A DNA stretch of 64,000 nucleotides from a virus (lineage: Duplodnaviria > Heunggongvirae > Uroviricota > Caudoviricetes). Shown piece after piece: positions 5,267 to 64,000 of this stretch. Position 1 is the first letter of the stretch, and each line of letters begins with the position of its first letter. The notes under the pieces are model-generated. The model was not told the origin of the DNA and searched no databases. It was given only the letters and a program-made list of their open reading frames with translations. Location: positions 2,050-66,049 of the IMG/VR virus record IMGVR_UViG_3300028042_000002, one strand, 5' to 3'. The translations under genes were made by a program, and so were the position numbers.

Positions 5267-6376
5267 ATGCCTATTCAAACTGTTACAAATGATACAAAAT
5301 TCACCACTTGGAAAGACATTACCAATAATATTAAAGATTTATCAGAATTAAATCAAACTAATATTGTTAATACTGATACTATTATTGGTAATACTTCACT
5401 TTCAACAAGTGCCACAACGTTAACCACTGCAATTAATGAATTATATGCTGATATTAATATTAATAGTGGTAATATTACCACAACTAATACAAATTTAGGC
5501 AGTCTTGGTTCACTTTCAACACCTGCTATAGATTTTGTAACTGCTATCAATTATAATGACAATAGAATAGGTGATTTAACATCATTACCCGATAATCCTG
5601 TCAATGTTGCATTAGAATTAGCTAAAATTGGTCAAATTACAAACCTTACAACCATTGATAAAAGTGATACAGTTTCAGCAATTAATGAATTACAGTCTTC
5701 TTTGTCAGTTCTCACACCAAGCAACCTTAATCATAATAATTTAGAAGTTAATCATGGTCGTTTTATGGTTGAAACGATATTATCACCTGCTTCACCAACT
5801 TTAGATACTGGGATATTTAATACCTTTAATTCTAGTACAATTATTGCAGATGATAAATTTATTGATGATAATCCGACTAATGGTACAGTTGGTACTAATA
5901 TGACAACATTATTATCAAAATTATCAACTAATGGACGAACTCAAACTGCATTTGGATATGAATTTTATATTATTAAATTACAATCGGGTGGTGGAACATC
6001 TAATCAAATTACAGTTAATGCAACTAATTATTATCCACAATCAGTAAATAATAATATCTATCTTGGTAAAATTGGACATAAAGTAACATGGCAAGGATAC
6101 ATTAAAAATGATGATGTTGTAAATAATGTCATTATTGGTGATATTACTAATACAAATATTAAAACTTATATTGATAATGTATTACAAGTTGCAAGCTATG
6201 AATTATCTAATGCTACAGGTTGGGTTCACGTTAGACAAATTTTAACTTTAGCTGATAAAGAATATGAAAATATATTTCCGAGTATTTATAGTGTGGGTGC
6301 AGGTACAGATATTTTAATAAGTTTGTCCGCTTTGTTTGAAGGTGATGTAAATATTGAACATTTAGGACTTTTATAA
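5267..6376 (+). CDS. fibre/whisker (fibritin-like) virion protein
   Basis: N-terminal TKFTTWKDITN, repeated LxT...AINEL coiled-coil units, globular C-terminus; late promoter at 5225-5232. Confidence 0.65.
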   Translation: MPIQTVTNDTKFTTWKDITNNIKDLSELNQTNIVNTDTIIGNTSLSTSATTLTTAINELYADININSGNITTTNTNLGSLGSLSTPAIDFVTAINYNDNRIGDLTSLPDNPVNVALELAKIGQITNLTTIDKSDTVSAINELQSSLSVLTPSNLNHNNLEVNHGRFMVETILSPASPTLDTGIFNTFNSSTIIADDKFIDDNPTNGTVGTNMTTLLSKLSTNGRTQTAFGYEFYIIKLQSGGGTSNQITVNATNYYPQSVNNNIYLGKIGHKVTWQGYIKNDDVVNNVIIGDITNTNIKTYIDNVLQVASYELSNATGWVHVRQILTLADKEYENIFPSIYSVGAGTDILISLSALFEGDVNIEHLGLL

Positions 6377-6420
6377 TGGTATAATTAGTTTTTTAAATCA
6401 TTAATTAATGTAAATAAATT

Positions 6421-6741
6421 ATGAAACATAATAAATTAGCTAAAAGTATAATAAAATTATTAGATATATGTGGAATATCAGATGATGATATTTTATTTAC
6501 AGGAGAATATAAACAAATTTATAAAATTATAGAATTGTTTATGAGGCTTAAATACCCTTGTGGTGGGATCGACATTATGCACACAACAAACAAAGGTGGG
6601 GATATTGAAATACATTATGAAACTTATCCATATAATAGAGTTATTTTCCATACATTATTAATTAATAATATATTTAATGAAGGATGTGGTATAAATGTTA
6701 CAAACTCAACTAAATTTGCTCATAATGTCAAGGTTACATAA
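6421..6741 (+). CDS. hypothetical protein
   Basis: follows ATGGTATAAT extended -10 at ~6376-6385. Confidence 0.65.
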   Translation: MKHNKLAKSIIKLLDICGISDDDILFTGEYKQIYKIIELFMRLKYPCGGIDIMHTTNKGGDIEIHYETYPYNRVIFHTLLINNIFNEGCGINVTNSTKFAHNVKVT

Positions 6742-6742
6742 A

Positions 6743-7453
6743 ATGTTTGAAATTTTCCCATATTATGATGACGCTGGTGTAAAAATATTACATTATTGGC
6801 ATGGGTTTCATGATAAAGAAGACGATTTAGAAGTAGACCAATTTATCATTGAAATTAATAATATTAAATATATTAGTGTTGATATGGTATTTGAAGAATT
6901 GTCAACTTTTATTTATATTGATGAATATAAAATATTATTATCATCTCCTCCAATAGAATTTAAAGATTTAGTATCTGCTGATGGAATGTTTCAATATTGC
7001 AAAGTTAAATTACCTGATAAGTTTAACCCCAATTTAGAAAACCTTAAGTCGGGTCGTGGCACATTTGGATCGTGTAATTTATCTAATACACAATTTAATC
7101 CAGTATTTAATAATTTAATTGATGCCGATTTTATGTTTCAATGGTCAAGCCTACCTCACAATTTTAATCCAAAATTACAAAATCTTGAAAGTGGGATACA
7201 AACATTTTTAGGATGTAAATTTAATATTTATTCACATTTCAATCCAATATTTGATAATTTAACACTTTGGATTAATATGTTTTATATGGCAAAATTGCCT
7301 AAATTATTTAATATTAATATTGATAACTTTTATATTGATGAAGCACTTAATTATAATGGTATGTTTGGCAGAGTAACAATACCTTACAATTTCTATAAAA
7401 GTAATATTTATTTTAATATTTCATCATATCATCAAGATATAAAAGTGTATTAA
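6743..7453 (+). CDS. BspA/DUF285-like leucine-rich repeat protein
   Basis: tandem ~23-aa repeats MFxxxxLPxxFNPxLxNLxxG; start moved to ATG 6743 after AAGGT. Confidence 0.65.
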   Translation: MFEIFPYYDDAGVKILHYWHGFHDKEDDLEVDQFIIEINNIKYISVDMVFEELSTFIYIDEYKILLSSPPIEFKDLVSADGMFQYCKVKLPDKFNPNLENLKSGRGTFGSCNLSNTQFNPVFNNLIDADFMFQWSSLPHNFNPKLQNLESGIQTFLGCKFNIYSHFNPIFDNLTLWINMFYMAKLPKLFNINIDNFYIDEALNYNGMFGRVTIPYNFYKSNIYFNISSYHQDIKVY

Positions 7454-7902
7454 ACAAATTCAAAATATGAGTATGCAAAGTTGACACTGCATTCCACAAT
7501 TTCACTATCAGTAGATTTACTATCAAATGATAATTCAGATAAACTTGTTGGATGTAAGTCATTAAATTGTATAATTTTATTACCTGTAAGATTACCTTTA
7601 AGTAAATGTAAATTAGCAGTCGAAAAGTGATCATCATTTTTATTCGTGGTGGCTATGTTAATCAACCATTCATATATTTCTATATAATTAGATAAATCTC
7701 TATCCACAATAAAATTAAATGTTAAAGGTGAAAACTCTAATTTAGTGCCGCCTAATGGTAAATCAAAATGTGGTGTATTTTGGATAGGTTTATCAATTTC
7801 AATAGATGGTAAAATACATGATTGAGCATGGTAAATTGCATTTGGAATATAATCTATATTTAACTTAAATTGGTTTGATTTTAATTGATTATGTTGAGGC
7901 AT
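7450..7902 (-). CDS. gp3: tail tube terminator / tail completion protein (T4 gp3-like)
   Basis: FKLNIDYIPN..Y..QS..LPSI, KLEFSPLTFNFIVDRDLSNYIEIYEW, PTSLSELSF; late promoter at 7940-7947. Confidence 0.85.
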   Translation of the reverse strand: MPQHNQLKSNQFKLNIDYIPNAIYHAQSCILPSIEIDKPIQNTPHFDLPLGGTKLEFSPLTFNFIVDRDLSNYIEIYEWLINIATTNKNDDHFSTANLHLLKGNLTGNKIIQFNDLHPTSLSELSFDSKSTDSEIVECSVNFAYSYFEFV

Positions 7903-10215: not shown

Positions 10216-13200
10216 TTGCAACACATCTAAAATTTTTAACTTTAGGTACTTTAGCAGAGTTATTAGACCTTAATAATATTTTAATTCTAAATTCCTTAAA
10301 ATCTGCTAAAGGTGTCTGTAATAAACTATCATCTCCAACACTTATAGTAACTTCTTTAAAGTCATTATTATGTTCAGATGTGATATCATTATCAAAATCC
10401 GTCTTAATCCATTCCATATTTTCCAACGTATCACTACTATCAGCAGATAAAACTTTATAATAAACATCAATAGTATTATCAATAGATTTATTAATATCCA
10501 TAATAATTCGCATTGATGTAGCAGGATTTTGAAGTGTAACTTTCTTTAGAATATATTTGCTTACATTCATTCCACCATTTTTATATGTTTCAAGTGCAAA
10601 TCTACCATTATAATTAGGTGATGTAATATCATTATTTAATGGTTGAATATCGGTAGTCTGATTTGGTTCAATATTAGCAACATTTTCATCAACATTATCA
10701 ACTCTATTTGTGATAGTAATCAATCCTAATGAACTTAAATCAATAACTGGAGATATATTATTATCATTATTGATAGTCCGACTTGTTGCAGTAAAAATTA
10801 TAGAAGGATTGCCTGAATTATTACTATCCTCATTAGTCCGATTAGCAATTTTTAATGGTTGTTCAAGTTCTACCATCGTATTTTCAATAAATTTAATATC
10901 ATTTATAATATTATAATCTTGACCATTAAATTTAGAGTTTATGCCACTATGCTTGAGTGCTTCCGTATTCCAATTAATTGTGCAATCATGAAGAATAATA
11001 TCACCATTTAATTCAAAATTGTCAACTTGGATATTACCTTTAGCATAAACATTATTACCACCTGTAAATCCTTTTACTGTTGCAAGATTATTTACACCTG
11101 ATAATTGTATTACATAACTATCCATATGGTCGACTGCTTGCATAATATGTTCAACTTCGGTAAATCTTGATAAATCTATACCATTTAAAATTGTGGTGAT
11201 ACCATTTTCAAAATATCCAACACAATTAGAAAGTAATTGAATATTATTTTCAATGTTTCCTTGATTTATGTCAAGTCTTTGTGAAATAGAAGTATTATCA
11301 ATATTTTCATTGTAACTGTTAGATGTAAAGTTCTCTAATGGTTGAAAATCTTTAGTAAGGTTATTAAATGTAATAATATACTTTTTATAAGTGTTTACAC
11401 CAACTGTAACATTTTCAATGAATTTGGCACTGGTTACTACTAATGAACCATTATTAATAGAGCCTGTTAATGTTTGCCCGATAATAATATCACCTGATTG
11501 AATAATTACTTCATATTCTAAACCAGTTAAAACATTTAATTTAACTTTATCGCCATTTACTAAACCATGTGATTTATGATGAACTCTAATAAGGTTTGAA
11601 CCTGCTTCACATTCAAAAGGATTGTTTCTAAGTTTTTGACTATCAAAATCAATATTATTAAATTCTAATACCATATCATCACGATTGAAATCAGCTTTAT
11701 ATAAATTAAATTTAACATCTTCCAATTGTTCAGCATTCCACGTCTCATTATTTTGGGATTTGAATAATGAACCCAACGTAGGTTGAGTTGTAATCATAGT
11801 ATTATCAATAAGGTTATTTTCACCCAATCTTGATACAAATATACGATAATCAGGGTCATCTGAACCAATTACAATACAATAACTAATAATTGGATTAAGA
11901 TAAATAGGTGCTTCAAATTTAAATATAGTTTCTAATGTACCATCTTCTGAAATATTTACATTATTACCTTTTTTAATACATTGTGAATATTTTACTATTT
12001 TTGATGATGGATAACCATTTTCCATTTCTCTAATTTCAAACCACACTGATTTATTCTTAGATTTACTTTTAAAAAATATTCCACAACTTGTAAGCATTAC
12101 ACCATTTTCTTCAATTATTACAAATTCTTGAGCAACTGGATCACGACGTTTTCCGCGTGGTCTACTAATATTCATCGGTGGACTAAAATCAGGCTCAATA
12201 TATACACTTTGTCTAACTGGTTTTACTAATGGAGGTTGTGGCAATGGTTTAGCAGGTGGAGATGGTGTATAAATTACTTGAGGTGGTGGAGATGGAATAG
12301 GTGGATTTGCAATAAATCTAGTATTTGTATTAGTTTTAATAACCTCATCAATTAATATAGTAGATTGTTTAACCTGTTTAATGCCACTAGCCCAATATGT
12401 ATTTTTAGCCGTTGTGGTAGTTTCATCAACATTATCATCATTTTTAATATTATCAGTAAGCTTAAATACTCTATCCCCAATATTAAATTTAATTAAATCA
12501 TTATTAGGAATTGTAAATATTGCAACTAAATCCCCCTCTTCATTAGTAATTAAATCATCACTCATTACACCATTTAACGGTCTACAATATTCAGATACTA
12601 AAACATCATCAAAAAATGGATATACTTTAGTATTAGGTCTTAAATTAGTAGCCACAATTTGAACAGATTTACTACGAATATAAGGAATAATATTGACATC
12701 TGTTACACGTAAACCTAAATTGTTAGCAGTTCGTGTATTAGTAATCGAAGTATTTACAACGTTTACACCACCTGAATTAATATTAGTTGTGGTGTTATTT
12801 ACTGTACTTGATATTACATTACTTTTATTATTTCTCCAACTATTAAACTCATTATTAATAGTTTTATTTTTATTCACAAAAGGTGGACTAAAATCAATAT
12901 CTGATTGATTATTCTGTAAGTTTTCAGGTGTTGAAATTGTAATATCATTTTGACTATTGATTAATTCTTTAAAACCTGATCCATCACCAATAACTAAAGT
13001 AGGCTTAGTTTCAATATCTTTCCAATTATCTAAAGATGGTATTAATTCTAACTGACCTTGCCAATTGAATATAAAGTATGGATTAACTGATAATGATTTA
13101 CTTGCAAATGGTTGATTAATATACAATTTTTCATCGTAAGACTGGGTAATAATATCACCATGCCTTTTAAAATTTGATGAATTTGTTTCATTAATTAATA

Positions 13201-16063
13201 AACTTACATATTTTGGGATATAAGATGGTCTTAATTCTTTATTATTGGTATCTAAAGTAGCATTAAATTCTTGATGATTAGTTTCGCTTGCATTAAAATT
13301 GCTAAAATTATCAGTAATTAATCCATTTTTATATCGGTCTAATCCATTAATATCTTTAATTGAAAGGTTAATAGTATTTTCTTCAAGTTGAGTGAGTGTA
13401 ATAATATTTTCAAGGTTATCTACCCGATGCTCAATTTTAGAAATATCTTTCATAGTAAAACGTCTATTGTCAACATATTTTACAGTAATATCATTTTCTA
13501 AATCAAAAGTATACGCACCTAATGAAATTTCATATAAGGTCATCATATTTTTGGGTGTAATGGGTAACTTTGGTTCGATGTCAGGTACACCTTTAATATT
13601 CTGAAATGTTCCATCTTCGGCTAATACTAATTTATCTTTGCGTGGAAGGTAAAATTCAATATCAAATATAATATTACTATCTTTACTTGGAATAAATGAT
13701 GTAATATTAAATTCATTACCATTATTACCTTCATCATCAATATCAGGTCTAAAGTCTAACGAAGATTTTAAATCATAAGTTGTACCATTTTTAGCCAAAT
13801 ATGTTGGGATGTCGTCATAATCAAAATTATTATTGGGGTCTGTGATTAATGTATCATAAGAATTTACATTAAAAAAGTACCCATTATTATTGCCAACGTG
13901 GTCAAAATATTCAATAGTGTATTCAATATCAATATCAGCGGTTAAAGGTGTTGAACCTGAAAGACGTTTAATACTTGATTTACCATAATAATTATCTTGA
14001 ATATTCTTATCAAGTGTAAAATCCTTAGTAATATCAATATTATTAGTCGTATCCATTACTTTTACAATTTTTACGCAATCTGTTTTACTTAATTCGATTG
14101 TGTTATATTGATTTACAATAGTTAAATTATAAGTATTGATTAAATTATCTAATATTTTCTGCTTGGCTGTAACATTAGTAATTAAAACATCGCAAACTAT
14201 AACTACATTTTTATTAGGTTGTAATCCTGTAACTTTAGCTGATTGAGTATTTAAAAATGTGGTATTACTTGATAATAATTCATAAGGTAAATATTCACCA
14301 TTTGAAATATCTTGCTGTCCACAAATCCATGTATTCTGATTAAATGATGTTAAATACTCGACACCATTTACACCAAATATAAACTCACCTGTTGCAGATG
14401 ATACACCAATATACTTTTTACGAACTGTCATTGTAGTATCAGTAATATTTTTAGTGTATTTATAAGGTAATTCAATTAATAAATTATTACTATTAGGCTC
14501 ATAAATTCGGGCATTTGAGATACCACTTCCAACATAAATTTCATCATCTGCTATCATATTACAATAAAAAGGATTATTACCATTTTTCATTATACCTTTA
14601 ACGTCTGCAAATGTACTAATATTACTAATAAATTCAATATCAAATAAGTACAATTTATATATAGTTTCAGCAAGTGTAGTAGGATAAATTTCTTGTGATT
14701 TTACTCTTGCATAACCTATTATACTACCAGTTGATACACCATTTACAATAATATTATCATGTAAATCAATCTTTTCAAAATCAGCCGCATATTCATTACT
14801 ACTTTCAACATCAGTTAACGATAATACATTACTGGTTACATTAGTTCCATCATCTCCTAATTTTACAAGAATATAATTACCTTGTTTAACTCGTACTGCA
14901 CTGGAATTAATAGTTGTAGTGTCTCTAGCTTTTTCTACATTAATATAACTTTCGGCAATCTTTTCAATTTCATACCCTTTTACATACGCCTTACCACTTT
15001 GAAATACTGCCATAAAGTGATTTTTCCAATATTCTAATGTAGCATGGTCTGTTGTACTATCAGGATAAACTAATCCATCATTAGAATTTTTATCAGATTT
15101 TAATAACTGTTTAAATGATAATGTAAATGGTTTTATAGTATAATTACCACTTTCATCGTACGTTCTACGTGCTATCATATCCTGAACATCTGAATATTGG
15201 GGTTTATCTCTTATTTCATTAAGAATACCATAACTAATTCTAGCCAATAATACCCAATTGTCACTATCCGCACTATTATAATTACGTTTTGCAAGTTTTA
15301 ATTTAATTTGATATCTATCACTACCTTCTGCCTTATAATTTGGATAACCTAAAGCATTATCCAACAATGAAATATCATCATTAGCAGTAATAATGTTTTG
15401 TTCTATATTTAAACCTACATCATAATAAGGTTTATATGAATATTTTGATAAAATTATAGATTGTTGTTCAACATATACAAAATAACCAAAAATATAATAA
15501 GTTCCATCAGTAATTGAAAATATTGAAGCTCGCCCAGTTGGATTTATGGTTTCATTTACTGGATGGTCGGGACAATTGGGACATTTTACAATAAATGTGT
15601 ATACAATATTATCATTATCATCTAAAGCATCAACTGTTTCACCATCTAAAAAGGTTTTTTCATCGTTAACTCCACTATTAATATAATTTACATAAATTGT
15701 AGCAGGATCAATATCAGTTTTAATACTTTCTGTTATAGTAGTTGCAAATATTTGACTGGTTCGACCATGCAATTTACGTCCACTAATTTTATCAACGTTT
15801 ATATTTTCATTATTATAATCTAGGTCTTTTAACCTTACATATTGTACGTCATTATTATAATCTAGGGTGGTATTTGCAACCATTGACCCATGTTTAAAAA
15901 TATGATTACCAAATTTCTCAATCTGATTAGATGTGATAGATTGTAATTGATTTAATTCACGAGTTTGAACACTTGAACGAGGCTTAAATAAAACTTTATG
16001 AAATCCTTTTTCACTGTTGAAATCGTCGAAATATGGTTCTACGTTAAACTCTTTTTTAGGCAT
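10208..16063 (-). CDS. large virion structural protein (VrlC/DUF4815 family)
   Basis: FNVEPYFDDF, VLFKP..VQTRELNQLQSI, ARRTYDESGNY, RFTMKDI, DPVAQ.F, GSLFKSQN..TW..EQ.ED.KF; late promoter at 16096-16103. Confidence 0.9.
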   Translation of the reverse strand: MPKKEFNVEPYFDDFNSEKGFHKVLFKPRSSVQTRELNQLQSITSNQIEKFGNHIFKHGSMVANTTLDYNNDVQYVRLKDLDYNNENINVDKISGRKLHGRTSQIFATTITESIKTDIDPATIYVNYINSGVNDEKTFLDGETVDALDDNDNIVYTFIVKCPNCPDHPVNETINPTGRASIFSITDGTYYIFGYFVYVEQQSIILSKYSYKPYYDVGLNIEQNIITANDDISLLDNALGYPNYKAEGSDRYQIKLKLAKRNYNSADSDNWVLLARISYGILNEIRDKPQYSDVQDMIARRTYDESGNYTIKPFTLSFKQLLKSDKNSNDGLVYPDSTTDHATLEYWKNHFMAVFQSGKAYVKGYEIEKIAESYINVEKARDTTTINSSAVRVKQGNYILVKLGDDGTNVTSNVLSLTDVESSNEYAADFEKIDLHDNIIVNGVSTGSIIGYARVKSQEIYPTTLAETIYKLYLFDIEFISNISTFADVKGIMKNGNNPFYCNMIADDEIYVGSGISNARIYEPNSNNLLIELPYKYTKNITDTTMTVRKKYIGVSSATGEFIFGVNGVEYLTSFNQNTWICGQQDISNGEYLPYELLSSNTTFLNTQSAKVTGLQPNKNVVIVCDVLITNVTAKQKILDNLINTYNLTIVNQYNTIELSKTDCVKIVKVMDTTNNIDITKDFTLDKNIQDNYYGKSSIKRLSGSTPLTADIDIEYTIEYFDHVGNNNGYFFNVNSYDTLITDPNNNFDYDDIPTYLAKNGTTYDLKSSLDFRPDIDDEGNNGNEFNITSFIPSKDSNIIFDIEFYLPRKDKLVLAEDGTFQNIKGVPDIEPKLPITPKNMMTLYEISLGAYTFDLENDITVKYVDNRRFTMKDISKIEHRVDNLENIITLTQLEENTINLSIKDINGLDRYKNGLITDNFSNFNASETNHQEFNATLDTNNKELRPSYIPKYVSLLINETNSSNFKRHGDIITQSYDEKLYINQPFASKSLSVNPYFIFNWQGQLELIPSLDNWKDIETKPTLVIGDGSGFKELINSQNDITISTPENLQNNQSDIDFSPPFVNKNKTINNEFNSWRNNKSNVISSTVNNTTTNINSGGVNVVNTSITNTRTANNLGLRVTDVNIIPYIRSKSVQIVATNLRPNTKVYPFFDDVLVSEYCRPLNGVMSDDLITNEEGDLVAIFTIPNNDLIKFNIGDRVFKLTDNIKNDDNVDETTTTAKNTYWASGIKQVKQSTILIDEVIKTNTNTRFIANPPIPSPPPQVIYTPSPPAKPLPQPPLVKPVRQSVYIEPDFSPPMNISRPRGKRRDPVAQEFVIIEENGVMLTSCGIFFKSKSKNKSVWFEIREMENGYPSSKIVKYSQCIKKGNNVNISEDGTLETIFKFEAPIYLNPIISYCIVIGSDDPDYRIFVSRLGENNLIDNTMITTQPTLGSLFKSQNNETWNAEQLEDVKFNLYKADFNRDDMVLEFNNIDFDSQKLRNNPFECEAGSNLIRVHHKSHGLVNGDKVKLNVLTGLEYEVIIQSGDIIIGQTLTGSINNGSLVVTSAKFIENVTVGVNTYKKYIITFNNLTKDFQPLENFTSNSYNENIDNTSISQRLDINQGNIENNIQLLSNCVGYFENGITTILNGIDLSRFTEVEHIMQAVDHMDSYVIQLSGVNNLATVKGFTGGNNVYAKGNIQVDNFELNGDIILHDCTINWNTEALKHSGINSKFNGQDYNIINDIKFIENTMVELEQPLKIANRTNEDSNNSGNPSIIFTATSRTINNDNNISPVIDLSSLGLITITNRVDNVDENVANIEPNQTTDIQPLNNDITSPNYNGRFALETYKNGGMNVSKYILKKVTLQNPATSMRIIMDINKSIDNTIDVYYKVLSADSSDTLENMEWIKTDFDNDITSEHNNDFKEVTISVGDDSLLQTPLADFKEFRIKILLRSNNSAKVPKVKNFRCVATT

Positions 16064-19265: not shown

Positions 19266-20228
19266 ATGACAAAGCAACAAATTAAAAAGAAACTTAAAGC
19301 TAATGGATATTTACCATTTGATTATGATAATAAAAGTATTTATGTCATATTAAATTATAAAAGTAGAGTAATTGAATATGAAAAACTTCAATCATTATTT
19401 TTAATTGATGGCGGAAAGTACATAAAAAATAAACGAACTTTAACTAGCAATGGTCATATTCAAATTGGTAATATAATGATTGCTATCACACCTTCAAAAA
19501 TTAAACAAATTGACCAACGTAGAATCCAACGATATTTAAGTAGCGAACCTCGAAATTCTATTAAAAATGAAATATATCTTGAAAAGGCAATATCTCAAAT
19601 TGTATGGGATACTTTATCAACTATAACTATTATTTTTAAAGCTGGTGGGAAACGTGTAATACTCAAAAAAGTTAAAGGTAGTAAAGGGGTTGGTTCGGAT
19701 GTTTCAGGACGTAAAAAGGCTGATATTCTAATATTAATTGGTCAATATAAACTACCTGTTAGCATTAAAATGAAAACAGCTAGTTTTTGGGAAAGTGCAG
19801 ATACATATTGGGGTGTAAATGCTAGAAAAATGATAGATCGTGGTGCAATAGAAGGTAAATTAGATGCTAATATAAATGGTAATACTATGAGAATGAATAA
19901 ACCTCTTGGTACAACTGCTACTCGTAAAGAGGAAAAAGATGTTGTATTCGGTTCGGATATTCTTAAAAATGGATTTATAGTTAAGCAAACTTTTACAGCC
20001 ACACAATTTAATTATGATGGCAAAATAAATACATTAACTGTAATATGCGATAGATTATATAAATCTCAATCAGATTTAAAAACTAATGATAGAGCATGGT
20101 TTATCGTTAGAAATAATAAAACTAGAAAATCTAAGAAAATTGGTATTAATGGTGTAGTAGTTGATGCAGTACCTAAAAAATCTGTTGCAGGTACTACTCA
20201 AATTATTAAACGTGATAAAATTAGGTAA
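19266..20228 (+). CDS. basic PD-(D/E)XK nuclease-fold protein, late-type
   Basis: E helix (KNEIYL), KKADILI, PVSIK motifs; TATAAATA at 19237-19244. Confidence 0.55.
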   Translation: MTKQQIKKKLKANGYLPFDYDNKSIYVILNYKSRVIEYEKLQSLFLIDGGKYIKNKRTLTSNGHIQIGNIMIAITPSKIKQIDQRRIQRYLSSEPRNSIKNEIYLEKAISQIVWDTLSTITIIFKAGGKRVILKKVKGSKGVGSDVSGRKKADILILIGQYKLPVSIKMKTASFWESADTYWGVNARKMIDRGAIEGKLDANINGNTMRMNKPLGTTATRKEEKDVVFGSDILKNGFIVKQTFTATQFNYDGKINTLTVICDRLYKSQSDLKTNDRAWFIVRNNKTRKSKKIGINGVVVDAVPKKSVAGTTQIIKRDKIR

Positions 20229-22164: not shown

Positions 22165-22428
22165 GTGAATAAAATGATTGATTGTAATAAAGAATGTGTT
22201 GAAAATGTATTACCATTGGATGATAATAAAAATCTATGTTGTGTTAATGATGATAAAATTGATAGTACAGTTGAATTATGTACAAGTAAGTTGGTGCAAT
22301 ATGATAATAATATATTGGAATTTGTGGGGGGTATGAGTAGAGTAAAGCAATGTGAATTAGTTGATATTGATAATAGGGTTAAGATGGCAGATAAAATTGT
22401 ATTATTGCCACCGATTGAATTATGTTAA
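22165..22428 (+). CDS. hypothetical protein with internal repeats (may be spurious)
   Basis: DKI..VELC/IELC repeats, strongly G-skewed DNA. Confidence 0.35.
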   Translation: MNKMIDCNKECVENVLPLDDNKNLCCVNDDKIDSTVELCTSKLVQYDNNILEFVGGMSRVKQCELVDIDNRVKMADKIVLLPPIELC

Positions 22429-22515
22429 GATTTTATGAATTTATACCCATTAAGTTTACTTGTGCGATGCTTAACTAATATACCAGTTAAATAATTGTTA
22501 TCACCTCGACTAAAT

Positions 22516-23382
22516 TTATCGTGTGATATTGAACATTTCATATGGTTTATTGTGGTCAACTTCTCTATATAATTCAAGAAAATCAATATTATGAATATCT
22601 TTATAAATTGACTTCGTAAGTTTAATTTGCCTAACTCTATTTGAAATTATCGAACCTTCAAACATATTAGCATTAGGTGTACTAGATATTCCAACAATAC
22701 AAGCTTTTAATTCAATTTCACTCTTTTTAAATGGAACATTATAATTATTTAATACATTATTAAGATTGTTTAATATAGTTTTATTTTGATATTCAAGTCC
22801 ATATAAATTAACCATTAACATTTTATTAAATATATTTAAATTCATATAATTTCTTAATATTGAAGTATTACATTCAATGGCAAGTTCTCCAAGCGGTTTG
22901 CATAATAATCTAGTAAATTCTTCCTTACCTAAACCATCATATTCACTATATAATACAGGCATAGGAATTTTAATATTAACTTTTTTACCTGTAATTAATC
23001 GCTTTTTAACTTTCCAAATTAACGCTTTATATAAATTAATATCATCATCTGAAATATTCATCAATTTTTTTAATTTTTGCCACTCGTCATCTTTATTTGA
23101 TTTGGCACTGATTGATAATTTTTTAGCTAATGAAACCTTATATCCACTTAACCAGTTATCAACATTCATAACAATAGAATTATTAAATCTAGTTTTAGTG
23201 TAATATAATTTATTTATCATATTAAGCTTACACCACTCATAATATTGTACATATAATAAATTTAAATCTACAGAATTACCGTTAGATTTGATATAAGTTA
23301 AGTGTCGTGGGGTATACCCTTTAACTTTTAAAAAGTATTCAAATACTTCTAAATATGATGTTGAATTTTTTATATCTTTCAT
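22516..23382 (-). CDS. degenerate paralogue of the VapE/D5-like ATPase
   Basis: PMPVLYSEYDGLGKEEF (altered Walker A), MVNLYGL at the Walker B position, shared NIDFLELYRE; start at ATG 23382 after AAGGTT. Confidence 0.75.
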   Translation of the reverse strand: MKDIKNSTSYLEVFEYFLKVKGYTPRHLTYIKSNGNSVDLNLLYVQYYEWCKLNMINKLYYTKTRFNNSIVMNVDNWLSGYKVSLAKKLSISAKSNKDDEWQKLKKLMNISDDDINLYKALIWKVKKRLITGKKVNIKIPMPVLYSEYDGLGKEEFTRLLCKPLGELAIECNTSILRNYMNLNIFNKMLMVNLYGLEYQNKTILNNLNNVLNNYNVPFKKSEIELKACIVGISSTPNANMFEGSIISNRVRQIKLTKSIYKDIHNIDFLELYREVDHNKPYEMFNITR

Positions 23383-23463
23383 TAATTTTAACCTTATTGT
23401 ATAAATATTAAATATAGTATTGATAATTTGCACCGAGAGAGTAACAAATTATTTAATTATTGT

Positions 23464-24666
23464 TTATTTCTTAATGTATGTGAAACTATTACCCTTTGCA
23501 TTACGTTTATTTTTTATAAAATATTGGTCAAGGTGTTGCACAATAGCAGGTGAAAATTTAGTATTGCTAATTAAAATTTCATTGTTATTATTACACCAAT
23601 GTTCAAAATGTTTATATAATCCAAAGGATGGATATATTTTATCATAAACTGCTTGACTAATATCATTTTCATGTTTATCAAAATTTGTATTATTAACCCA
23701 ATCGTCAAACCAATATTCAACAATATGCTTACTTTTCTGCTTGTCATGTTGGATTGTTAAAATTTTACTATAATTTTTAGGGTCTAATAAATCACATAAT
23801 GAAGTATGATCAATTTCTCTATATAATTCAAGAAAATCAATATTATCCACAGCATCAAATAATGGTTTACTTAGTTTAATTTCCCACATTCTACGAGAAC
23901 CTGTTTTATCAGGCATAATTTCTGAAACTTTTTTATTAGATGAAGCTACCCCACAAAACAGTTTATATGCTGATATATTTTTATGATTGTGCATCAACCT
24001 TGTATTAATTTTATCATTCGTAACTAGAAATTTGTATGCTGATATCTCTCTATCACTTTGGTCTGAAATGTCATCAAAATTAATCATAAACATATCACTC
24101 CATATTTGATAATTTTTACTATCTTGGACATCTGATAATGGTCGTTGCATTGATAACTCACCTAATACATTTTCAATAGCTCGATTAAATGTAGTTTTTC
24201 CCCAACCTTGATTAGTACTGAAAATTACTGGCATTGGTACTTGATAATTATTTAAAATTTCATCGTTTATACACTGCCGTTTAATTTTCCATAATGTTGC
24301 TTGATATACCATAATATCATTATCAGTCCAATTTGTTAATTTTTGAAGTTTTAACCATTCTGCCATATCATTAGATTTTGGTTTAACATTTAATCTATCG
24401 GCTAAATCTGATTTAAGTTGCTCCAATGTTTCATGTTGAATAATATTATCAGTTTCATCAATAGTTTTTCTAGTATGAATAAATGATTTTACTCTGTTTA
24501 TTTTACACCAAATTGAGTACCTTGAAAATAAGTTATTTAATGGTATCATTTTATTTTTATGATAATATGCATTATATCCAACTGTAATATTGTTAAGAGT
24601 TAAGAAATAATTAAACACCATAACAGCATCATTACATTTCATTAAGTTTTCGTTATCTAATTTCAT
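23464..24666 (-). CDS. VapE/VirE- or D5-like P-loop ATPase/helicase (no primase domain)
   Basis: Walker A NQGWGKTT, Walker B MINFDDI, ASSN, DKTGSRR arginine motif, C-terminal LYKHFEHWC winged-helix-like motif. Confidence 0.8.
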   Translation of the reverse strand: MKLDNENLMKCNDAVMVFNYFLTLNNITVGYNAYYHKNKMIPLNNLFSRYSIWCKINRVKSFIHTRKTIDETDNIIQHETLEQLKSDLADRLNVKPKSNDMAEWLKLQKLTNWTDNDIMVYQATLWKIKRQCINDEILNNYQVPMPVIFSTNQGWGKTTFNRAIENVLGELSMQRPLSDVQDSKNYQIWSDMFMINFDDISDQSDREISAYKFLVTNDKINTRLMHNHKNISAYKLFCGVASSNKKVSEIMPDKTGSRRMWEIKLSKPLFDAVDNIDFLELYREIDHTSLCDLLDPKNYSKILTIQHDKQKSKHIVEYWFDDWVNNTNFDKHENDISQAVYDKIYPSFGLYKHFEHWCNNNNEILISNTKFSPAIVQHLDQYFIKNKRNAKGNSFTYIKK

Positions 24667-24857
24667 ACTTTGTTACCTTTATTATAATTTCTTACACGAG
24701 TATATAAGGTGGTTCTTGATATATTTAATTCTGTTGCAATACTCCCCCATGTGTAACCTTTCTTATTTAATTTTATAACCTTATCCACATCAAAATCCCT
24801 ATACGCACCTTTCCCACTTTTATTCATAATTAAATTGTTTTCATTTATATCAGTCAT
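24663..24857 (-). CDS. small helix-turn-helix DNA-binding protein
   Basis: GYTWGSIATELNISRTTLYTRV (Hin/Fis-type HTH); overlaps the ATPase start. Confidence 0.85.
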   Translation of the reverse strand: MTDINENNLIMNKSGKGAYRDFDVDKVIKLNKKGYTWGSIATELNISRTTLYTRVRNYNKGNKV

Positions 24858-25005
24858 TGTATTATGCCTATATGTTGTTAATGTTCAATTATATAACTAT
24901 TTATACATGTTAGCATATTAATCATCTAAATTTTTTCAATAATACGAATAAAAATGTAAGGATGTAAGCTATATGCAACCTAATATATTTTAATAATTTC
25001 TTATA

Positions 25006-25018
25006 AATCAATATGTTA
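25006..25018 (+). promoter_or_regulatory. IHF-consensus site AATCAATATGTTA
   Basis: exact match to WATCAANNNNTTR. Confidence 0.55.
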
Positions 25019-25077
25019 AGGTGTTATTATGTATAGATGTGGGGTGTAGGCTACATTTTCATTTTATATGCTTTATA

Positions 25078-25102
25078 TATTATTATTATTATTATTATTA
25101 TT
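25078..25102. repeat. (TAT)n microsatellite / AT-rich unwinding tract
   Basis: about 8 tandem TAT units. Confidence 0.9.
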
Positions 25103-25161
25103 TTTAAAAAAGTATACATACTATACATTAATAAGTAATAATATTATAAATTGTATATATT

Positions 25162-25174
25162 AATCAACAAGTTA
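25162..25174 (+). promoter_or_regulatory. IHF-consensus site AATCAACAAGTTA
   Basis: exact match to WATCAANNNNTTR. Confidence 0.55.
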
Positions 25175-25235
25175 TAAAAAATGTAAACCTTATCAATTTA
25201 ACATACATTAACCTGTCATTAATGTACATTATTTA

Positions 25236-25549
25236 ATTACTTTAGACGCTATCGCTTGGTATGTGATAATTCAAAAGAATAATATTGATTACATTTTCAA
25301 CTTGATTTACTTCTATTAATATTAATTAATTTTGATAAATATTGTACAATTCTTACAATGTAATCTAATGACCTAACTTTTACCATATCAAACAACTATA
25401 AACCATTGCTAAATTTAATCATAATCATAAAGTAATAGTAAGTAGCCAATATTATATTCAACTGCCTTAAATGGCTTAATATTAATCAACTAATAATTTA
25501 TCATAATGTCTTTGAATTTTGCACACTTAAGCGAAGCGTCTATAGTAAT
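25236..25549. repeat. imperfect ~42-bp inverted repeat (25236-25278 / 25509-25549)
   Basis: ATTACTTTAGACGCTATCGCTTGGTATGTGATAATTCAAAAGA versus reverse complement ATTACTATAGACGCTTCGCTTAAGTGTGCAAAATTCAAAGA. Confidence 0.85.
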
Positions 25550-25779
25550 AAACATTATCCTACAACTTAATCATATTGAAACTATAACCAATATTAATCC
25601 ATTACTAAATTTATATTAATATAAAGTACTGCCTTTGAATTATCACACGCAGGTTTTTATCTTTTCATAGTAATATAAATTTACACTCAAATTCATAAAA
25701 GTATTAACATTCTCACCACTTCCATAAATATTCCATTATAATAACAACTTCATTTACTAATTACCTTAAATATAATATT

Positions 25780-42890: not shown

Positions 42891-43625
42891 ATGATTACAA
42901 ATATTACACAAACTGATAAAGATATTCAAACCATGTCATCACTTGAAATTGCTGAATTGACAGGTAAAACACATTCTCATGTATTACGAGATATTGATAA
43001 TATGTTGATTATTGTAAATCCAGATTTGGATAGTCCTTTAAATTCAGCAACTTATAAAGATGGTAATAATATAGAAAGACGACATTTTAATCTTAATAAA
43101 AATTTAACATTAACCCTGATTTCAGGTTACAATATAAAACTTCGATATACAATTATCAAAAGATGGCAAGAATTAGAAACTATCGAAGAACCTAAATCAA
43201 TTCAACCTATTAATCCACTAACCCAACAATTAGAAGGTTTAAAATTTCTAGCAGATGAATTTAATATTCAAGGTGTAGATAAAATTAATATGTTTGAAAA
43301 TGGATTAGCTAAATTTCCAGATATTATTAAAGCTTTACCATCATATTCAACTTCAAGTATATCTGCCAAAGTTGCACAATCGTACAGTGGTCATAAATCT
43401 GACAATGATGAAGTTTTAATATCTGCAACCGCCTTTAATAAATTAGCTAAAAGTCATAAAATATTAGAGCAGATTACTAGAAAAAATGGTAAAAAGTTTT
43501 GGAGTGTGACAGATAAAGGTTTAAAATATGGACTTAATAAAGTGTCACGTCAATCATCATCAATAACTCAACCGCATTGGTATGATGATACATTTAAAGA
43601 ATTATATAAAGTAGTTCAACAATGA
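42891..43625 (+). CDS. Rha-family regulatory/antirepressor-like protein
   Basis: TMSSLEIAELTGK.H.HVLRDI, LISGYNIKLR..II.RWQELE, C-terminal W.VT.KG..YG. Confidence 0.88.
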   Translation: MITNITQTDKDIQTMSSLEIAELTGKTHSHVLRDIDNMLIIVNPDLDSPLNSATYKDGNNIERRHFNLNKNLTLTLISGYNIKLRYTIIKRWQELETIEEPKSIQPINPLTQQLEGLKFLADEFNIQGVDKINMFENGLAKFPDIIKALPSYSTSSISAKVAQSYSGHKSDNDEVLISATAFNKLAKSHKILEQITRKNGKKFWSVTDKGLKYGLNKVSRQSSSITQPHWYDDTFKELYKVVQQ

Positions 43626-46759: not shown

Positions 46760-46834
46760 ACGCCATTAGCTCAAAGGTAGAGCAGAACCCTCATAATGTT
46801 TAGGTTATTGGTTCAAGTCCAATATGGCGTACCA
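46760..46834 (+). tRNA. tRNA with CAT anticodon (Ile2-like or elongator Met)
   Basis: acceptor ACGCCAT/ATGGCGT, D arm GCTC/GAGC, loop CTCATAA, T arm ATTGG-TTCAAGT-CCAAT, encoded CCA. Confidence 0.93.
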
Positions 46835-55701: not shown

Positions 55702-57006
55702 ATGAATTACCAAAAGTTATATAATAATATAATTACTAACGCCCAATCTAAAAACCGCAAAAAATCTAAATTAGAATATTTTGAAAATCATCATATATTA
55801 CCAAGATGTTTAGGTGGTTCAAACGATAAAAGTAATTTAGTATTATTAACATTTAAAGAGCATTATATTGCACACCATTTATTGGTTAAAAATTCTAATA
55901 ATATCATCCATAAATCAAAATTGGCAATGGCATTTAATATTTTAATGAATACAAGTAAAGATAAATTAAATGAGTGTGATAATTTTATAACTATTAAAGT
56001 TTGGAAATTTAATTTACAATTTATCAGACATTTGGAAAGTAGTAAACTTAAAATATCCGCTGCTAATAAAGATAAAATAATTTCATACCAACATAAAAAT
56101 ATTTTATCAGTTATAAAAAGTGGAAAACTTAATCCATGTAATAAAGGTGAATATATTACACCATTTGGTCATTTTTATGGTTCAACCGAAGCTGAATATG
56201 TATCAGGTATAAATTCTAAAACTATATCAAACTGGTGTATAAACAATAATAAAATTATTTCAAATAGAAATATTACACAGTCATATTACCTTAAATCATT
56301 ATCACCATCGCCACTCGGCAAAACATTCAAAGAAATTGGGTTTAGTTTTATAGATTTACAGGGTGTTAATAATAAATATGATAATCGCCAACCTAAACAA
56401 CCTTATACAATGTCAACCGAAAGTAGATTAAAAATGAGTAAAGCTCATAAAGGTAAAATTGTATCTAAAGAAAGTCGTGAACGTATGTCAAAATCTCACA
56501 TAGGTGATAAAAATTGGCAAGTTTCAGGATATTATCAAACACCATTTGGTAAATTTTCATCATCAACAGAAGCATCTAACAAGTGTGATAATATTATACA
56601 CAGCCGAACTATTGTAAATTTTTGCAATCATAACAATAATAAAATAATCACAAGAAGATCTATTACTCGATCAAAATATTTACAATCTTTAACATCATCT
56701 CCACTTGGTAAAACTTATAATGATATTGGATTTTCATTTATTAAAACTAAAAATAATCCAATTAAGCGTAAAACTAATTCATTATATATCACACCATGGG
56801 GAACGTTTAATTCTACTAAATCTGCTGTAAATTATTCAAAAGGGTTAATTAATTCTCCAACATCAATATCATCATGGTGCAAAAAGAACAATAATAAAAT
56901 AATTACAATAAGGTCATTCCAACAATCACCATTTTTAAAATCATTACCAGTTTCTCCGATTGGTAAAACGTTTAAACAAGTTGGCTTTTATTTTGCATCA
57001 GTTTAA
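55702..57006 (+). CDS. free-standing HNH homing endonuclease with NUMOD3-like and repeated DNA-binding domains
   Basis: ENHHILPRCLGGSNDKSNLVLLTFKEHYIAHHLL; ESRLKMSKAHKGK; three Y.TPFG.F.S...A repeats. Confidence 0.88.
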   Translation: MNYQKLYNNIITNAQSKNRKKSKLEYFENHHILPRCLGGSNDKSNLVLLTFKEHYIAHHLLVKNSNNIIHKSKLAMAFNILMNTSKDKLNECDNFITIKVWKFNLQFIRHLESSKLKISAANKDKIISYQHKNILSVIKSGKLNPCNKGEYITPFGHFYGSTEAEYVSGINSKTISNWCINNNKIISNRNITQSYYLKSLSPSPLGKTFKEIGFSFIDLQGVNNKYDNRQPKQPYTMSTESRLKMSKAHKGKIVSKESRERMSKSHIGDKNWQVSGYYQTPFGKFSSSTEASNKCDNIIHSRTIVNFCNHNNNKIITRRSITRSKYLQSLTSSPLGKTYNDIGFSFIKTKNNPIKRKTNSLYITPWGTFNSTKSAVNYSKGLINSPTSISSWCKKNNNKIITIRSFQQSPFLKSLPVSPIGKTFKQVGFYFASV

Positions 57007-57545: not shown

Positions 57546-58625
57546 ATGTCAATTTATCAACTATTCCATAATGAAATCCTAACTGAATATATCCATAATA
57601 AAAAATCATTTACTGATATTGCTAAAATACACAATCTTTATCGTAAAGGTATCGGAAAATATGTTAAAAGTTTAAATATTATACAAGATGATGATAATAT
57701 ACCACTATTACAATATAACACTACAAGATGTGTATCATATAAACCACAATTAAAAATTCTTAGAGATAAGAAACTTGTTGAGTATGCTTATAAATTACAC
57801 CGTAAAAGTAAAATATGTGCTGAATTATTTGGTGTACATCCTGCATCATTTAATAATACATTACATTACCATAATATCCCAATTATTAAATCTAATAAAT
57901 CGTCTCATGAATACCTTATCATCCAACGTTTAACCAATTTAAATATAAAATGTGTTCATAGTTATAAAGTCCCTCAATCTGCCTTAGAATTTGACATTTT
58001 CTTACCTGATTATAATTTAGCTATTGAAATTAATGGTTTATATTATCATTCACATAAACAGGGTAAAAAAGATAAGCTTTATCATCAAAATAAATTCAAT
58101 CTAGCATTAAAAAATGATTTCAGATTATTACAATATCATGATTGTGAAATTATCAATAGTTTAGATAATGTAATCCAACATATACTAAATAATTTACCGT
58201 TAAAAAGTAGTAAACATAATAAAATAGTTGTTGACCATCCGCAAGCTGATAAATTTATAAAAGATAATAAGGTTAGATTGACTAATATTAATTATAATTC
58301 AACAATAAGTATAGTTGATGATGAAAATAATAATATTTTATATTGTATGTCATTTTCAAACAATCACCTTATTGAATACTGTGGTAAAAATGCAACAGGT
58401 TATCACGATAAAATATTCAACACATTTAATAAACCTATAAAATATTGGTGGGATTGTCGGTTATCTCCTTTAACCTTATTAAATCATGGTTATTATAACA
58501 CACAAGTATCAACGTTGGATGTTGCACATATTGATAATTATAAAGTTACCACCGAACAAAGTAATAAAAATATTGATAAAATTTATAATTGTAATAAATA
58601 TCTGCTTACTTTATATAAATATTAG
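57546..58625 (+). CDS. Hef/Vsr-like (PD-(D/E)XK) homing endonuclease
   Basis: SSHE, LEFDIFLPDYNLAIEINGLYYHS, YHQNK. Confidence 0.82.
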   Translation: MSIYQLFHNEILTEYIHNKKSFTDIAKIHNLYRKGIGKYVKSLNIIQDDDNIPLLQYNTTRCVSYKPQLKILRDKKLVEYAYKLHRKSKICAELFGVHPASFNNTLHYHNIPIIKSNKSSHEYLIIQRLTNLNIKCVHSYKVPQSALEFDIFLPDYNLAIEINGLYYHSHKQGKKDKLYHQNKFNLALKNDFRLLQYHDCEIINSLDNVIQHILNNLPLKSSKHNKIVVDHPQADKFIKDNKVRLTNINYNSTISIVDDENNNILYCMSFSNNHLIEYCGKNATGYHDKIFNTFNKPIKYWWDCRLSPLTLLNHGYYNTQVSTLDVAHIDNYKVTTEQSNKNIDKIYNCNKYLLTLYKY

Positions 58626-62159: not shown

Positions 62160-64000
62160 ATGACCATAATATTAGGGATTGTTAATGGTTATTCAGGTGA
62201 ACGTCTTAAAATAGATAGTAACACTAATTATAATATTGGATTGTGTGGCTTACCGTTACCAAGTTTTGATTATGATAATATTTGTAATGATATAATAATA
62301 TCAACAGGTCAATCATTAGATTTAATATTAGAAACTTTCCCACAATTTACTACTGAACGTAATATTTATTTATGTACCGAAAGTTCATCTGATTTTGATT
62401 ACACGTTAAGCATATGTGATAATAAAATATTAAATGGATACAATGGGCAGTCTTTTGCCGTTGAATTATTCCACACAAGCATAATTAATTATAATATTCC
62501 ATTATGTTACAAACCTAATGTAATTACCAAAATTGATTATAATGAGTCTTGTTTAGATTATGATATATTACCTAATGTAATTAATAATTCAACAATATTT
62601 AAATGTGATTTAGATGTACCTATAGTTTTAAACTATGACCTTATTATTTGTAAAGAATATATCAACCCTACACCATTTACAATAGTTCCCCATAACTTTT
62701 TATATAATGATTTACCTTGCCCCAAAATAACCATTAATAATTATAATGGTCAACAATTAACCGTTACATTACTAAGTGATTTATATCTTGATAATATTAA
62801 TGGATATAGTGGTAATAATACCACAGTTGAATTGTCAATTACTCGATTATTAGATATTAATAATTATAATGGTGGATATGGTTATACAGATTTAACAGTT
62901 AATTTAGCAGACCACCTTGATATTACTTTTTTTGGTGGAGAAAACCTATTAAATGCACAATTATCAACCACCAGTAATTTAGAATTAAACACTAATTTAA
63001 ATGGTTCTACGTTAGCAACCTTAGAATTATTAACATTTGAAGTTAAATTATTAGATATTCCGTTTACAACTGGTTCATATTTCAACAATTTTAATCTTAT
63101 TCCAAGTGTTTCATTTGATGTTACATTTTTAAATGGTAATAATACCATAATTGACGTTACAATTAACCCTGCTGAAACATTAGAAATTATTAATTATAAT
63201 GGCAATTATTCATCATTAGATAACATAAACACTACTGTAAATTTACCTTTATTTGGTTATACGGGCGAGCAATTAACAACAATTTTATCAACTGCTAAAT
63301 CATTACCTTTAAATTCTAATTATAATGGTCAGTTGGTTTACTCTGATTTAACTTTACCAGAGCTGGCAAGATTAGAAGATATTAATTATAGTGGTCAATT
63401 ATCAACCACATTTTTAAATGGTCAATCTAATTTATTTACACGTGGATATAGTGGTAATAATACCACAATTAGTTTAGATATTCAACCATCATCATCAATG
63501 TTTTTAGATAATTTCTTAAATGGTGACACGTTACAACCTTTCATATTAGATGAAGATTTATTTTATTTTAATAATTATAATGGTGTCTTAAGTTATGCAG
63601 AATTATCAACTGAAACTACTTTAAATGTAACATTCCTTAATTGTCAATCATCAAATATTGATAATATTTCAACGTCTGCAACCTTAGAAATTGTTAATTA
63701 TAATGGTCAACTTTCAACCATTGATGAAATATTCATTCACCTTGGAGAAGAGCTTGAGATAATTAATTATACTGCACAACATTTAACAGTTATTGATGAT
63801 ATTAAAATTCATCATGTGTTGTTACCATTGCCAATTATCGGCAGTCAAACTTTATATGATGGCAGTGGTGGATTAGGTGGGTTAAATTTTCATACTTTAG
63901 AAAATGTTGAGACTGGTACAATATTTGACGTTAGACCAAGTGATATTAAATTTTATTCTGATAGTGGAAATAAAAGATATCATAAAATTGATATAGATTT
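62160..64000 (+). CDS. large repeat-rich virion protein, partial (runs off window end)
   Basis: ATG 62160, frame appears open to the end; ~20-aa repeats centred on NYNGQ/GYSG; 25-bp exact repeat 62801-62825 / 63443-63467. Confidence 0.75.
   Translation, partial: MTIILGIVNGYSGERLKIDSNTNYNIGLCGLPLPSFDYDNICNDIIISTGQSLDLILETFPQFTTERNIYLCTESSSDFDYTLSICDNKILNGYNGQSFAVELFHTSIINYNIPLCYKPNVITKIDYNESCLDYDILPNVINNSTIFKCDLDVPIVLNYDLIICKEYINPTPFTIVPHNFLYNDLPCPKITINNYNGQQLTVTLLSDLYLDNINGYSGNNTTVELSITRLLDINNYNGGYGYTDLTVNLADHLDITFFGGENLLNAQLSTTSNLELNTNLNGSTLATLELLTFEVKLLDIPFTTGSYFNNFNLIPSVSFDVTFLNGNNTIIDVTINPAETLEIINYNGNYSSLDNINTTVNLPLFGYTGEQLTTILSTAKSLPLNSNYNGQLVYSDLTLPELARLEDINYSGQLSTTFLNGQSNLFTRGYSGNNTTISLDIQPSSSMFLDNFLNGDTLQPFILDEDLFYFNNYNGVLSYAELSTETTLNVTFLNCQSSNIDNISTSATLEIVNYNGQLSTIDEIFIHLGEELEIINYTAQHLTVIDDIKIHHVLLPLPIIGSQTLYDGSGGLGGLNFHTLENVETGTIFDVRPSDIKFYSDSGNKRYHKIDID

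Follow-up and report, generated by a model that had tools for sequence, protein, structure and literature searches.

A three-gene VapE-like helicase unit beside a candidate replication origin in a T4-like phage

The stretch of viral DNA considered here, 64,000 nucleotides long (positions 2,050 to 66,049 of IMG/VR record IMGVR_UViG_3300028042_000002, class Caudoviricetes) and hereafter called the window, carries on its minus strand a unit of three genes, in which a short helix-turn-helix (HTH) gene overlaps the gene of an ATPase of 400 amino acids (aa), P0001, through ATGA, and the gene of a paralogue, P0004, lies next downstream (Table 1). The unit abuts a gene-free gap of 922 bp (24858-25779), the largest in the window, the next being 441 bp once the open reading frame (ORF) at 62160-63998 is counted. 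A preliminary description made from the letters alone had recorded the three genes, the promoter motif ahead of them and a gap of about 920 bp in a phage of T4 type, and on all of these it was right. Three features escaped it, namely the C-terminal tail of the paralogue in the next frame, a third copy of the helicase outside the window and a pair of inverted arms in the gap.

Table 1. Features of the helicase unit and of the adjoining gap, in window coordinates
Feature	Position	Strand	Remarks
Out-of-frame remnant of the P0004 winged-helix tail	22425..22571	-	50% identity over 46 aa to P0003 350-394, E 7e-8
Paralogue P0004	22516..23382	-	288 aa; ORF open from 23433; ends before winged helix
VapE/SaPI-Rep-like superfamily-3 helicase P0001	23464..24666	-	400 aa; Pfam, profile, fold, motifs
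HTH gene, resolvase/Hin type	24663..24857	-	64 aa; Pfam HTH_7
Late promoter motif TATAAATA, T4-type	24898..24905	-	40 nt above HTH start
Most AT-rich 120 bp of window	25061..25180	.	9% G+C; candidate melting region
Inverted arm A	25233..25290	-	sole GCGNNAGC of window (25255-25248, minus); TGTGATAATTCAAA (25262-25275, plus)
Inverted arm B	25490..25552	+	sole GCGNAGC of window (25531-25537, plus); variant 14-mer
Exact 14-bp pseudo-palindrome, third copy	25634..25647	-	candidate protein-binding site

The intact helicase, its HTH partner and their promoter

P0001 is almost certainly an intact VapE-like superfamily-3 helicase, to judge from its sequence and its structure model. It matches Pfam VapE (PF05272) at 9e-11, with 42.1 bits against a cut-off of 25, and also passes the cut-off of Pox_D5, the D5 winged helix (1.4e-4), whilst a profile of 145 rows retrieves 7PDS at 3e-24, the NrS-1 helicase at 2e-7 and RFX winged helices besides. 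7PDS is described as the complex with DNA of Rep1 from Staphylococcus aureus pathogenicity island 1 (SaPI1; PMC9371898). It is also the best Foldseek match of the structure model (predicted local distance difference test, pLDDT, 93.5; template-modelling score, TM, 0.60), and the other matches listed are again superfamily-3, replicative helicases, so that the VapE/D5 assignment proposed earlier is borne out by profile and fold. The architecture is that of an N-terminal helical domain, an AAA+ core and a C-terminal winged helix, and the motif table has Walker A, Walker B (DD), B', motif C and the arginine finger all kept. The DD form of Walker B is shared with P0019 and P0020, and in alignment A3 the Walker B D[E/D], the B' K/R pair, the SSN of motif C and the RR are present in all 18 rows besides P0004, P0001 included.

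SaPI1 Rep1 is thus the best match in both profile and fold and has the same three-part build, although a structural alignment gives only 12-14% identity. It is also described as a stand-alone protein (PMC9371898), and the missing fusion to a primase, which had been thought unusual, is not so: the stand-alone helicase is the commoner form because 100 of the top 147 relatives are 340-545 aa long, with 36 above 545 aa and thus of fusion size and 11 shorter. No primase was matched among the window genes scanned, the gene upstream of the helicase being the HTH gene, and a comparison of four proteins with known defence systems gave no match.

The HTH protein had been called Hin/Fis-type, of which the resolvase/Hin part holds, HTH_7 passing the Pfam cut-off at 9e-7, and the Fis part does not, HTH_8 falling short at 0.015. 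No sequence relative of the protein was found, and its comparison with the resolvases of related islands (see below) gave no support to a resolvase remnant. It is likely an autoregulator of the cop kind. Weak matches of the same protein to small-terminase profiles (phrog_309 at 6e-4; Terminase_5 at 0.01, below cut-off) and the late promoter would suit a unit for late DNA processing or packaging, as the preliminary description had entertained, with the ATPase preparing concatemers at a pac-like site that the HTH protein would recognise in the manner of a small terminase. These HTH matches are generic and all listed structural matches of the ATPase are replicative helicases, with nothing terminase-like and no terminase ATPase-nuclease fold among them, and such a role appears very improbable.

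The motif TATAAATA occurs in the window at chance level (51 observed, 51.7 expected), and what distinguishes it is where it lies. It stands 8-90 nt upstream of 17 of the 91 ORFs on the same strand, whereas 2000 random placements gave 2.6 such ORFs on average and never more than 9, and because this placement before ORFs beats the random one, it is a genuine late-promoter signal in this phage. Of the 16 sites that lie no more than 60 nt from a start, the copy above the HTH gene is the only one with G on both flanks and is therefore a slightly atypical late promoter.

Three copies of the helicase and their island relatives

The sole close relative of P0001 is P0002/P0003, at 40% identity. P0003 is a third VapE copy, intact with all five motifs (Pfam VapE 65.1 bits), which lies outside the window on a 130,049-bp contig of the Joint Genome Institute (JGI); P0001, P0004 and the HTH protein are found on a contig of identical length, and P0003 therefore probably resides in this same phage genome. 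The three copies are mutually 31-41% identical, P0004 matching P0003 at 41% and P0001 at 32% (over 273 aa, E 5e-39).

P0004 had been described as a degenerate paralogue, and it has indeed lost four of the five ATPase motifs, namely Walker B (NLYG), B' (N/K), motif C (ISS) and the arginine finger (IISNR); its Walker A retains GK with the next S/T residue replaced. It has no Pfam VapE match and agrees with 23 of 53 conserved columns, 16 fewer than the 39 of P0003, with a lid segment that is 77% identical to that of P0003. In a simulation of neutral drift the frame stayed open in 3 of 2000 runs once 8 of 39 marked residues had changed, and in none of 200 at 80% identity. Because neutral drift so rarely leaves the frame open, it was likely maintained after catalysis was lost, and P0004 is quite likely a selected pseudo-enzyme. 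An internal deletion of about 70 codons precedes the remnant in Table 1, in which the next frame still encodes the final third of the winged helix. As this tail is still recognisable there, the deletion, which would have abolished DNA binding, looks younger than the loss of catalysis, and it may be either adaptive or the onset of decay. JGI/IMG and the European Nucleotide Archive (ENA) both deposit P0004 with the same end, possibly from the same reads, and its start is likelier the ATG at 23382, with AAGG ten bases upstream, than position 23433. Convergent with the paralogue tail lies an 87-aa ORF rich in Cys, Asp and Asn (22165-22428, plus strand) without a family, the exact sequence of which is absent from the protein collection searched.

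The ten nearest relatives of P0001 comprise four named ones, from chromosomes of Vibrio, Photobacterium and Shewanella, and six from metagenomic contigs of 2-28 kb. The nearest sequences are the Reps P0005, P0007, P0013, P0014 and P0019, at 22-28% identity over the full length. Their loci are satellite-like islands and perhaps true satellites, and the three that were read (L001, L002 and L004) all contain a resolvase and defence genes. A large serine recombinase also occurs in L001 and L004. L001 further contains a TerS-like gene and ShosTA-like genes, and L004 a repressor and a type I restriction system; in L002 (Shewanella marinintestina) a separate primase and AbiH are joined by iterons arrayed directly behind rep. 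This array (score 15.3) has five exact copies of ATTATTGTC, in one orientation or the other, immediately downstream of rep, which is the layout described for SaPIs (PMC9371898). In L001 and L002 a small gene (54-58 aa) overlaps rep and is of a DNA-binding type other than HTH_7, and none of the three loci has a dead paralogue. The gene is patchily distributed, with 2 carriers among 148 genomes in the genus and 1 among 401 in the order.

These loci also deserve notice on their own account. The interval between rep and primase in L002 (6830-7090) carries iterons ATTATTGTCA and variants in both orientations and would be a ready SaPI-like origin in a gammaproteobacterium. In L004, of a Vibrio-type island, a clamp-loader-like AAA+ gene (5291-5941; phrog_168, 1e-22) stands directly upstream of rep, and L001 has its ShosTA-like pair (5274-7546; HAD/phosphoribosyltransferase and DprA-like) inside the island, with the TerS-like gene at 12811-13224.

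A satellite-like island is thus the probable ancestral source of the phage unit, in keeping with the satellite-type replicons named in the preliminary description, although the islands bring recombinases and defence genes which the phage unit does not, and L002 adds its primase and its downstream iterons. In a tree of 44 rows the three phage copies form one clade (support 100/99; branches 1.06, 0.31 and 1.49), P0001 and P0004 being flagged there for unusual composition, which could help to draw the two together. The G+C content at third codon positions (GC3) is 0.12 in both window copies, within the phage range of 0.08-0.19 and outside the 0.23-0.41 of the islands, and their codon use is that of the phage. 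The single clade and the phage-like GC3 and codon use argue for a long residence in the phage, and they point to an old capture followed by duplication, in a tree that is unrooted as to the direction of transfer.

It might be supposed that the unit is a mere passenger, the leftover of an integrated satellite that hitch-hikes and is now decaying, for which the island ancestry, the deletion and frameshift in the paralogue and the failure to match P0001 in 50,697 phage records could be cited. P0001 and P0003 retain all their motifs on long branches, though, the codon use is phage-like, and the frame of P0004 is open despite many substitutions. Other marks of an integrated satellite were sought, and no recombinase was found next to the module or in decayed form within the gap, where a resolvase remnant is missing too; the base composition is that of the phage. 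A passenger is accordingly quite unlikely.

The scans for relatives of the module in phages covered the 50,697 records just mentioned. GenBank phages gave no match for P0001 or P0007, and P0003 has 88 weak partial matches among them, the 60 and 20 records listed, in overlapping sets, all being of at most 86 kb and none of T4 size. No relative of the module was found in IMG/VR or in five distant T4-like records, four of which are small fragments. The literature, in titles and the openings of abstracts and with subscription papers mostly outside its scope, yielded nothing on VapE/Rep helicases from T4-like phages. A VapE helicase in triplicate, with one copy a pseudo-enzyme, inside a T4-type phage is made of known parts in a combination not found in these phage collections or in that literature, and comes from one genome.

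The main rival to a replicon of the phage's own would be a decoy against satellites, the live and dead Reps being made late to occupy satellite origins or to poison Rep rings, with the non-coding element unrelated. The nearest relatives lie within satellite-like islands, three copies as divergent as these (31-41%) would suit several targets, the promoter is a late one, and no cognate iterons were found in the window. There is also a precedent for the reuse of satellite parts, as Odn of phage ICP1 is described as bearing a DNA-binding domain like that of the origin-binding proteins of PLE, an element that resembles phage-inducible chromosomal islands (PMC8263062). Against it, co-assembly is doubtful at 22-28% identity to the known island Reps, no nuclease is attached, and the overlap of HTH gene and rep resembles the operon of an intact replicon. 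A decoy is on balance unlikely.

The non-coding gap

Beyond its AT-rich stretch the gap contains an inverted repeat, imperfect and about 50 bp long, in which 25233-25290 pairs with 25552-25490. The core scores 27.1, where 60 shuffles reach at most 23.2 and other windows of 922 bp at most 23.3, and the fold has a z of -5.4 where the best control among 48 folds reaches -2.8. Mini-hairpin motifs are situated at mirror positions of the two arms on opposite strands, the arms differing by a single base in the hairpin loop that turns GCGNAGC into GCGNNAGC. Both motifs are described as defined and very stable DNA mini-hairpins and occur at priming sites of G4, St-1 and plasmid RSF1010 (PMC13037366). 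The 14-bp pseudo-palindrome is present in the gap in two exact copies and one variant. As to iterons, no word of the gap exceeds the shuffle maximum, and the 13 copies of ATGTA were singled out post hoc. As a decayed gene the gap finds no match to the helicase profile, the window proteins or the island resolvases, and a comparison with Rfam, at E up to 1, brought up no known RNA. Its DNA was not matched in phages or viral contigs, a single plasmid match being at chance level.

The arms resemble paired priming signals, and an analogy is offered by the oriV of RSF1010, where ssiA and ssiB are reported as two inverted signals of 40 nt on opposite strands (PMC8567376). There paired inverted hairpin signals lie beside AT-rich DNA, as the putative signals of the phage would; the geometry is similar without a sequence match. 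RSF1010, on the other hand, uses separate RepA, RepB' and RepC proteins with iterons, and neither iterons nor the RepB' primase nor RepC was found in the window. Plasmid pRN1 (orf56/orf904) is described as having a repressor/rep operon with a stem-loop origin (PMC4234260), so that a repressor gene, a superfamily-3, winged-helix rep and an origin without iterons come together as they would in the phage unit, although the Rep of pRN1 has its own primase and its origin lies downstream.

The layouts of pRN1, with repressor, rep and stem-loop, and of RSF1010, with its paired ssi, allow a further reading, that HTH gene, Rep and origin keep the phage as a low-copy episome that uses host polymerase separately from the lytic T4 replisome. 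The presence of a gene like that for anti-repressor, Ant (42891-43625), within a T4-like phage is an observation in its own right and would agree with it. T4-like phages are as a rule lytic, however, a late promoter of the gp55 type would be silent outside lytic growth, and the window yielded neither a repressor nor an integrase, all of which makes such a state highly doubtful.

SaPIs and other phage-inducible chromosomal islands (PICIs) carry 6-12 short iterons around an AT-rich core directly downstream of rep, as L002 does, and a primase upstream of or fused to rep. The phage unit has no upstream primase gene and no downstream iterons, it has three copies of the helicase including a dead one, and it shares with them the winged helix and the three-part fold. 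It falls short of a SaPI replicon in these respects and yet, by analogy, would likely work like one. Among T4 origins, oriA to oriG, several are situated like the gap at switches of the transcribed strand, and oriC may depend on a late promoter (PMC3016281). T4 itself initiates through R-loops and recombination, and the available part of that account describes no such initiator helicase.

A possible replicon within a T4-type phage

The reading put forward here, with some hesitation as to the whole mechanism, is that of a domesticated replicon of repressor, Rep and origin. The unit was probably captured long ago from a satellite-like island and would now act at the adjoining non-coding element, with Rep hexamers loading through the winged helix near the arms and melting the AT-rich DNA. 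Each exposed single strand would then present one hairpin, and primers laid down at the hairpins would run inward, cross, and initiate a pair of opposite leading strands for extension by the T4-type polymerase, clamp and single-stranded DNA-binding protein (SSB). The operon would be repressed by its own HTH protein, whilst P0004, the dead copy, would enter Rep rings as a brake. A domesticated satellite and a grafted initiator module, offered as alternatives in the preliminary description, form a single story.

In this scheme Rep would open the origin and gp41 would not be replaced, because superfamily-3 helicases track the leading-strand template. Profile scans of the window proteins detect gp32, gp45, gp44, gp62, gp55, RegA, RNase H, Dda and baseplate genes, whilst gp41, gp61 and gp59 are seen nowhere among the scanned window genes. 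Taken with the two intact VapE copies, this might suggest that gp41 has been lost and the VapE helicases have become the main replicative helicase. The window is only about half of the 130-kb contig, though, the gene order is scrambled, and the opposite polarity of the helicase would call for a different primase, superfamily-3 helicases being described as pairing mostly with archaeo-eukaryotic primases (AEP; PMC4889955), which leaves such a replacement extremely improbable.

A number of points weigh against a domesticated replicon. Chance alone would supply about one of each mini-hairpin motif per window, single arms have no special stability under standard DNA folding, and the boundaries of the element were picked after inspection. 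No iteron array above chance was found in the gap or downstream of either gene (best 5.2, window maximum 7.6). The element is upstream of the Rep gene, and SaPI origins are always downstream of rep according to the available part of a preprint (bioRxiv 10.64898/2026.10.17.759575). L001 and L004 are without comparable arms or iterons, and the arms match no fetched locus. The element is also upstream of an exonuclease/RNase H operon that runs divergently, and its better fold is that of plus-strand RNA (z -5.4, compared with -3.1), so that it may be unrelated to Rep; it would comprise either DNA signals or a structured plus-strand RNA, and may serve the exonuclease operon. A late promoter is a poor fit for an initiator, and none of the sigma-70 candidates above the HTH gene scores more than 9/12. 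No primase accompanies the module, which comes from a single genome. P0004 is the sister of P0003 and not of its neighbour P0001, and since its tail is still P0003-like, the deletion may be recent decay.

The phage itself is T4-like but deeply divergent by sequence, its clamp loader being at most 39% and gp6 at most 35% identical to those of cultured phages, with best matches for gp8 and SSB of only 26-29%; a search for relatives of its RNase H turned up none. The T4 gene order is scrambled, single structural genes with a late promoter each being dispersed among early genes. A 320-aa protein without known function (19266-20228; phrog_12709, 9e-37) likewise has a late promoter motif ahead of it amid early-strand genes. 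The window also contains two homing endonucleases (55702-57006 and 57546-58625) and one tRNA-Met (46760-46834).

The start of replication in T4-like phages is still only loosely defined. Were the domesticated replicon correct, a T4-type replisome would be joined to a self-loading initiator-helicase and a compact candidate origin within three short genes and 600 bp, genes would have flowed from satellites to a large phage, and P0004 would be a natural dead-ATPase regulator of a ring helicase. In its boldest and rather improbable form, the second replication system, with its own origin, repressor and dead-helicase brake, together with an episome, would amount to a T4-type phage-plasmid. If instead the Reps are decoys, they would represent a new form of counter-defence against satellites.

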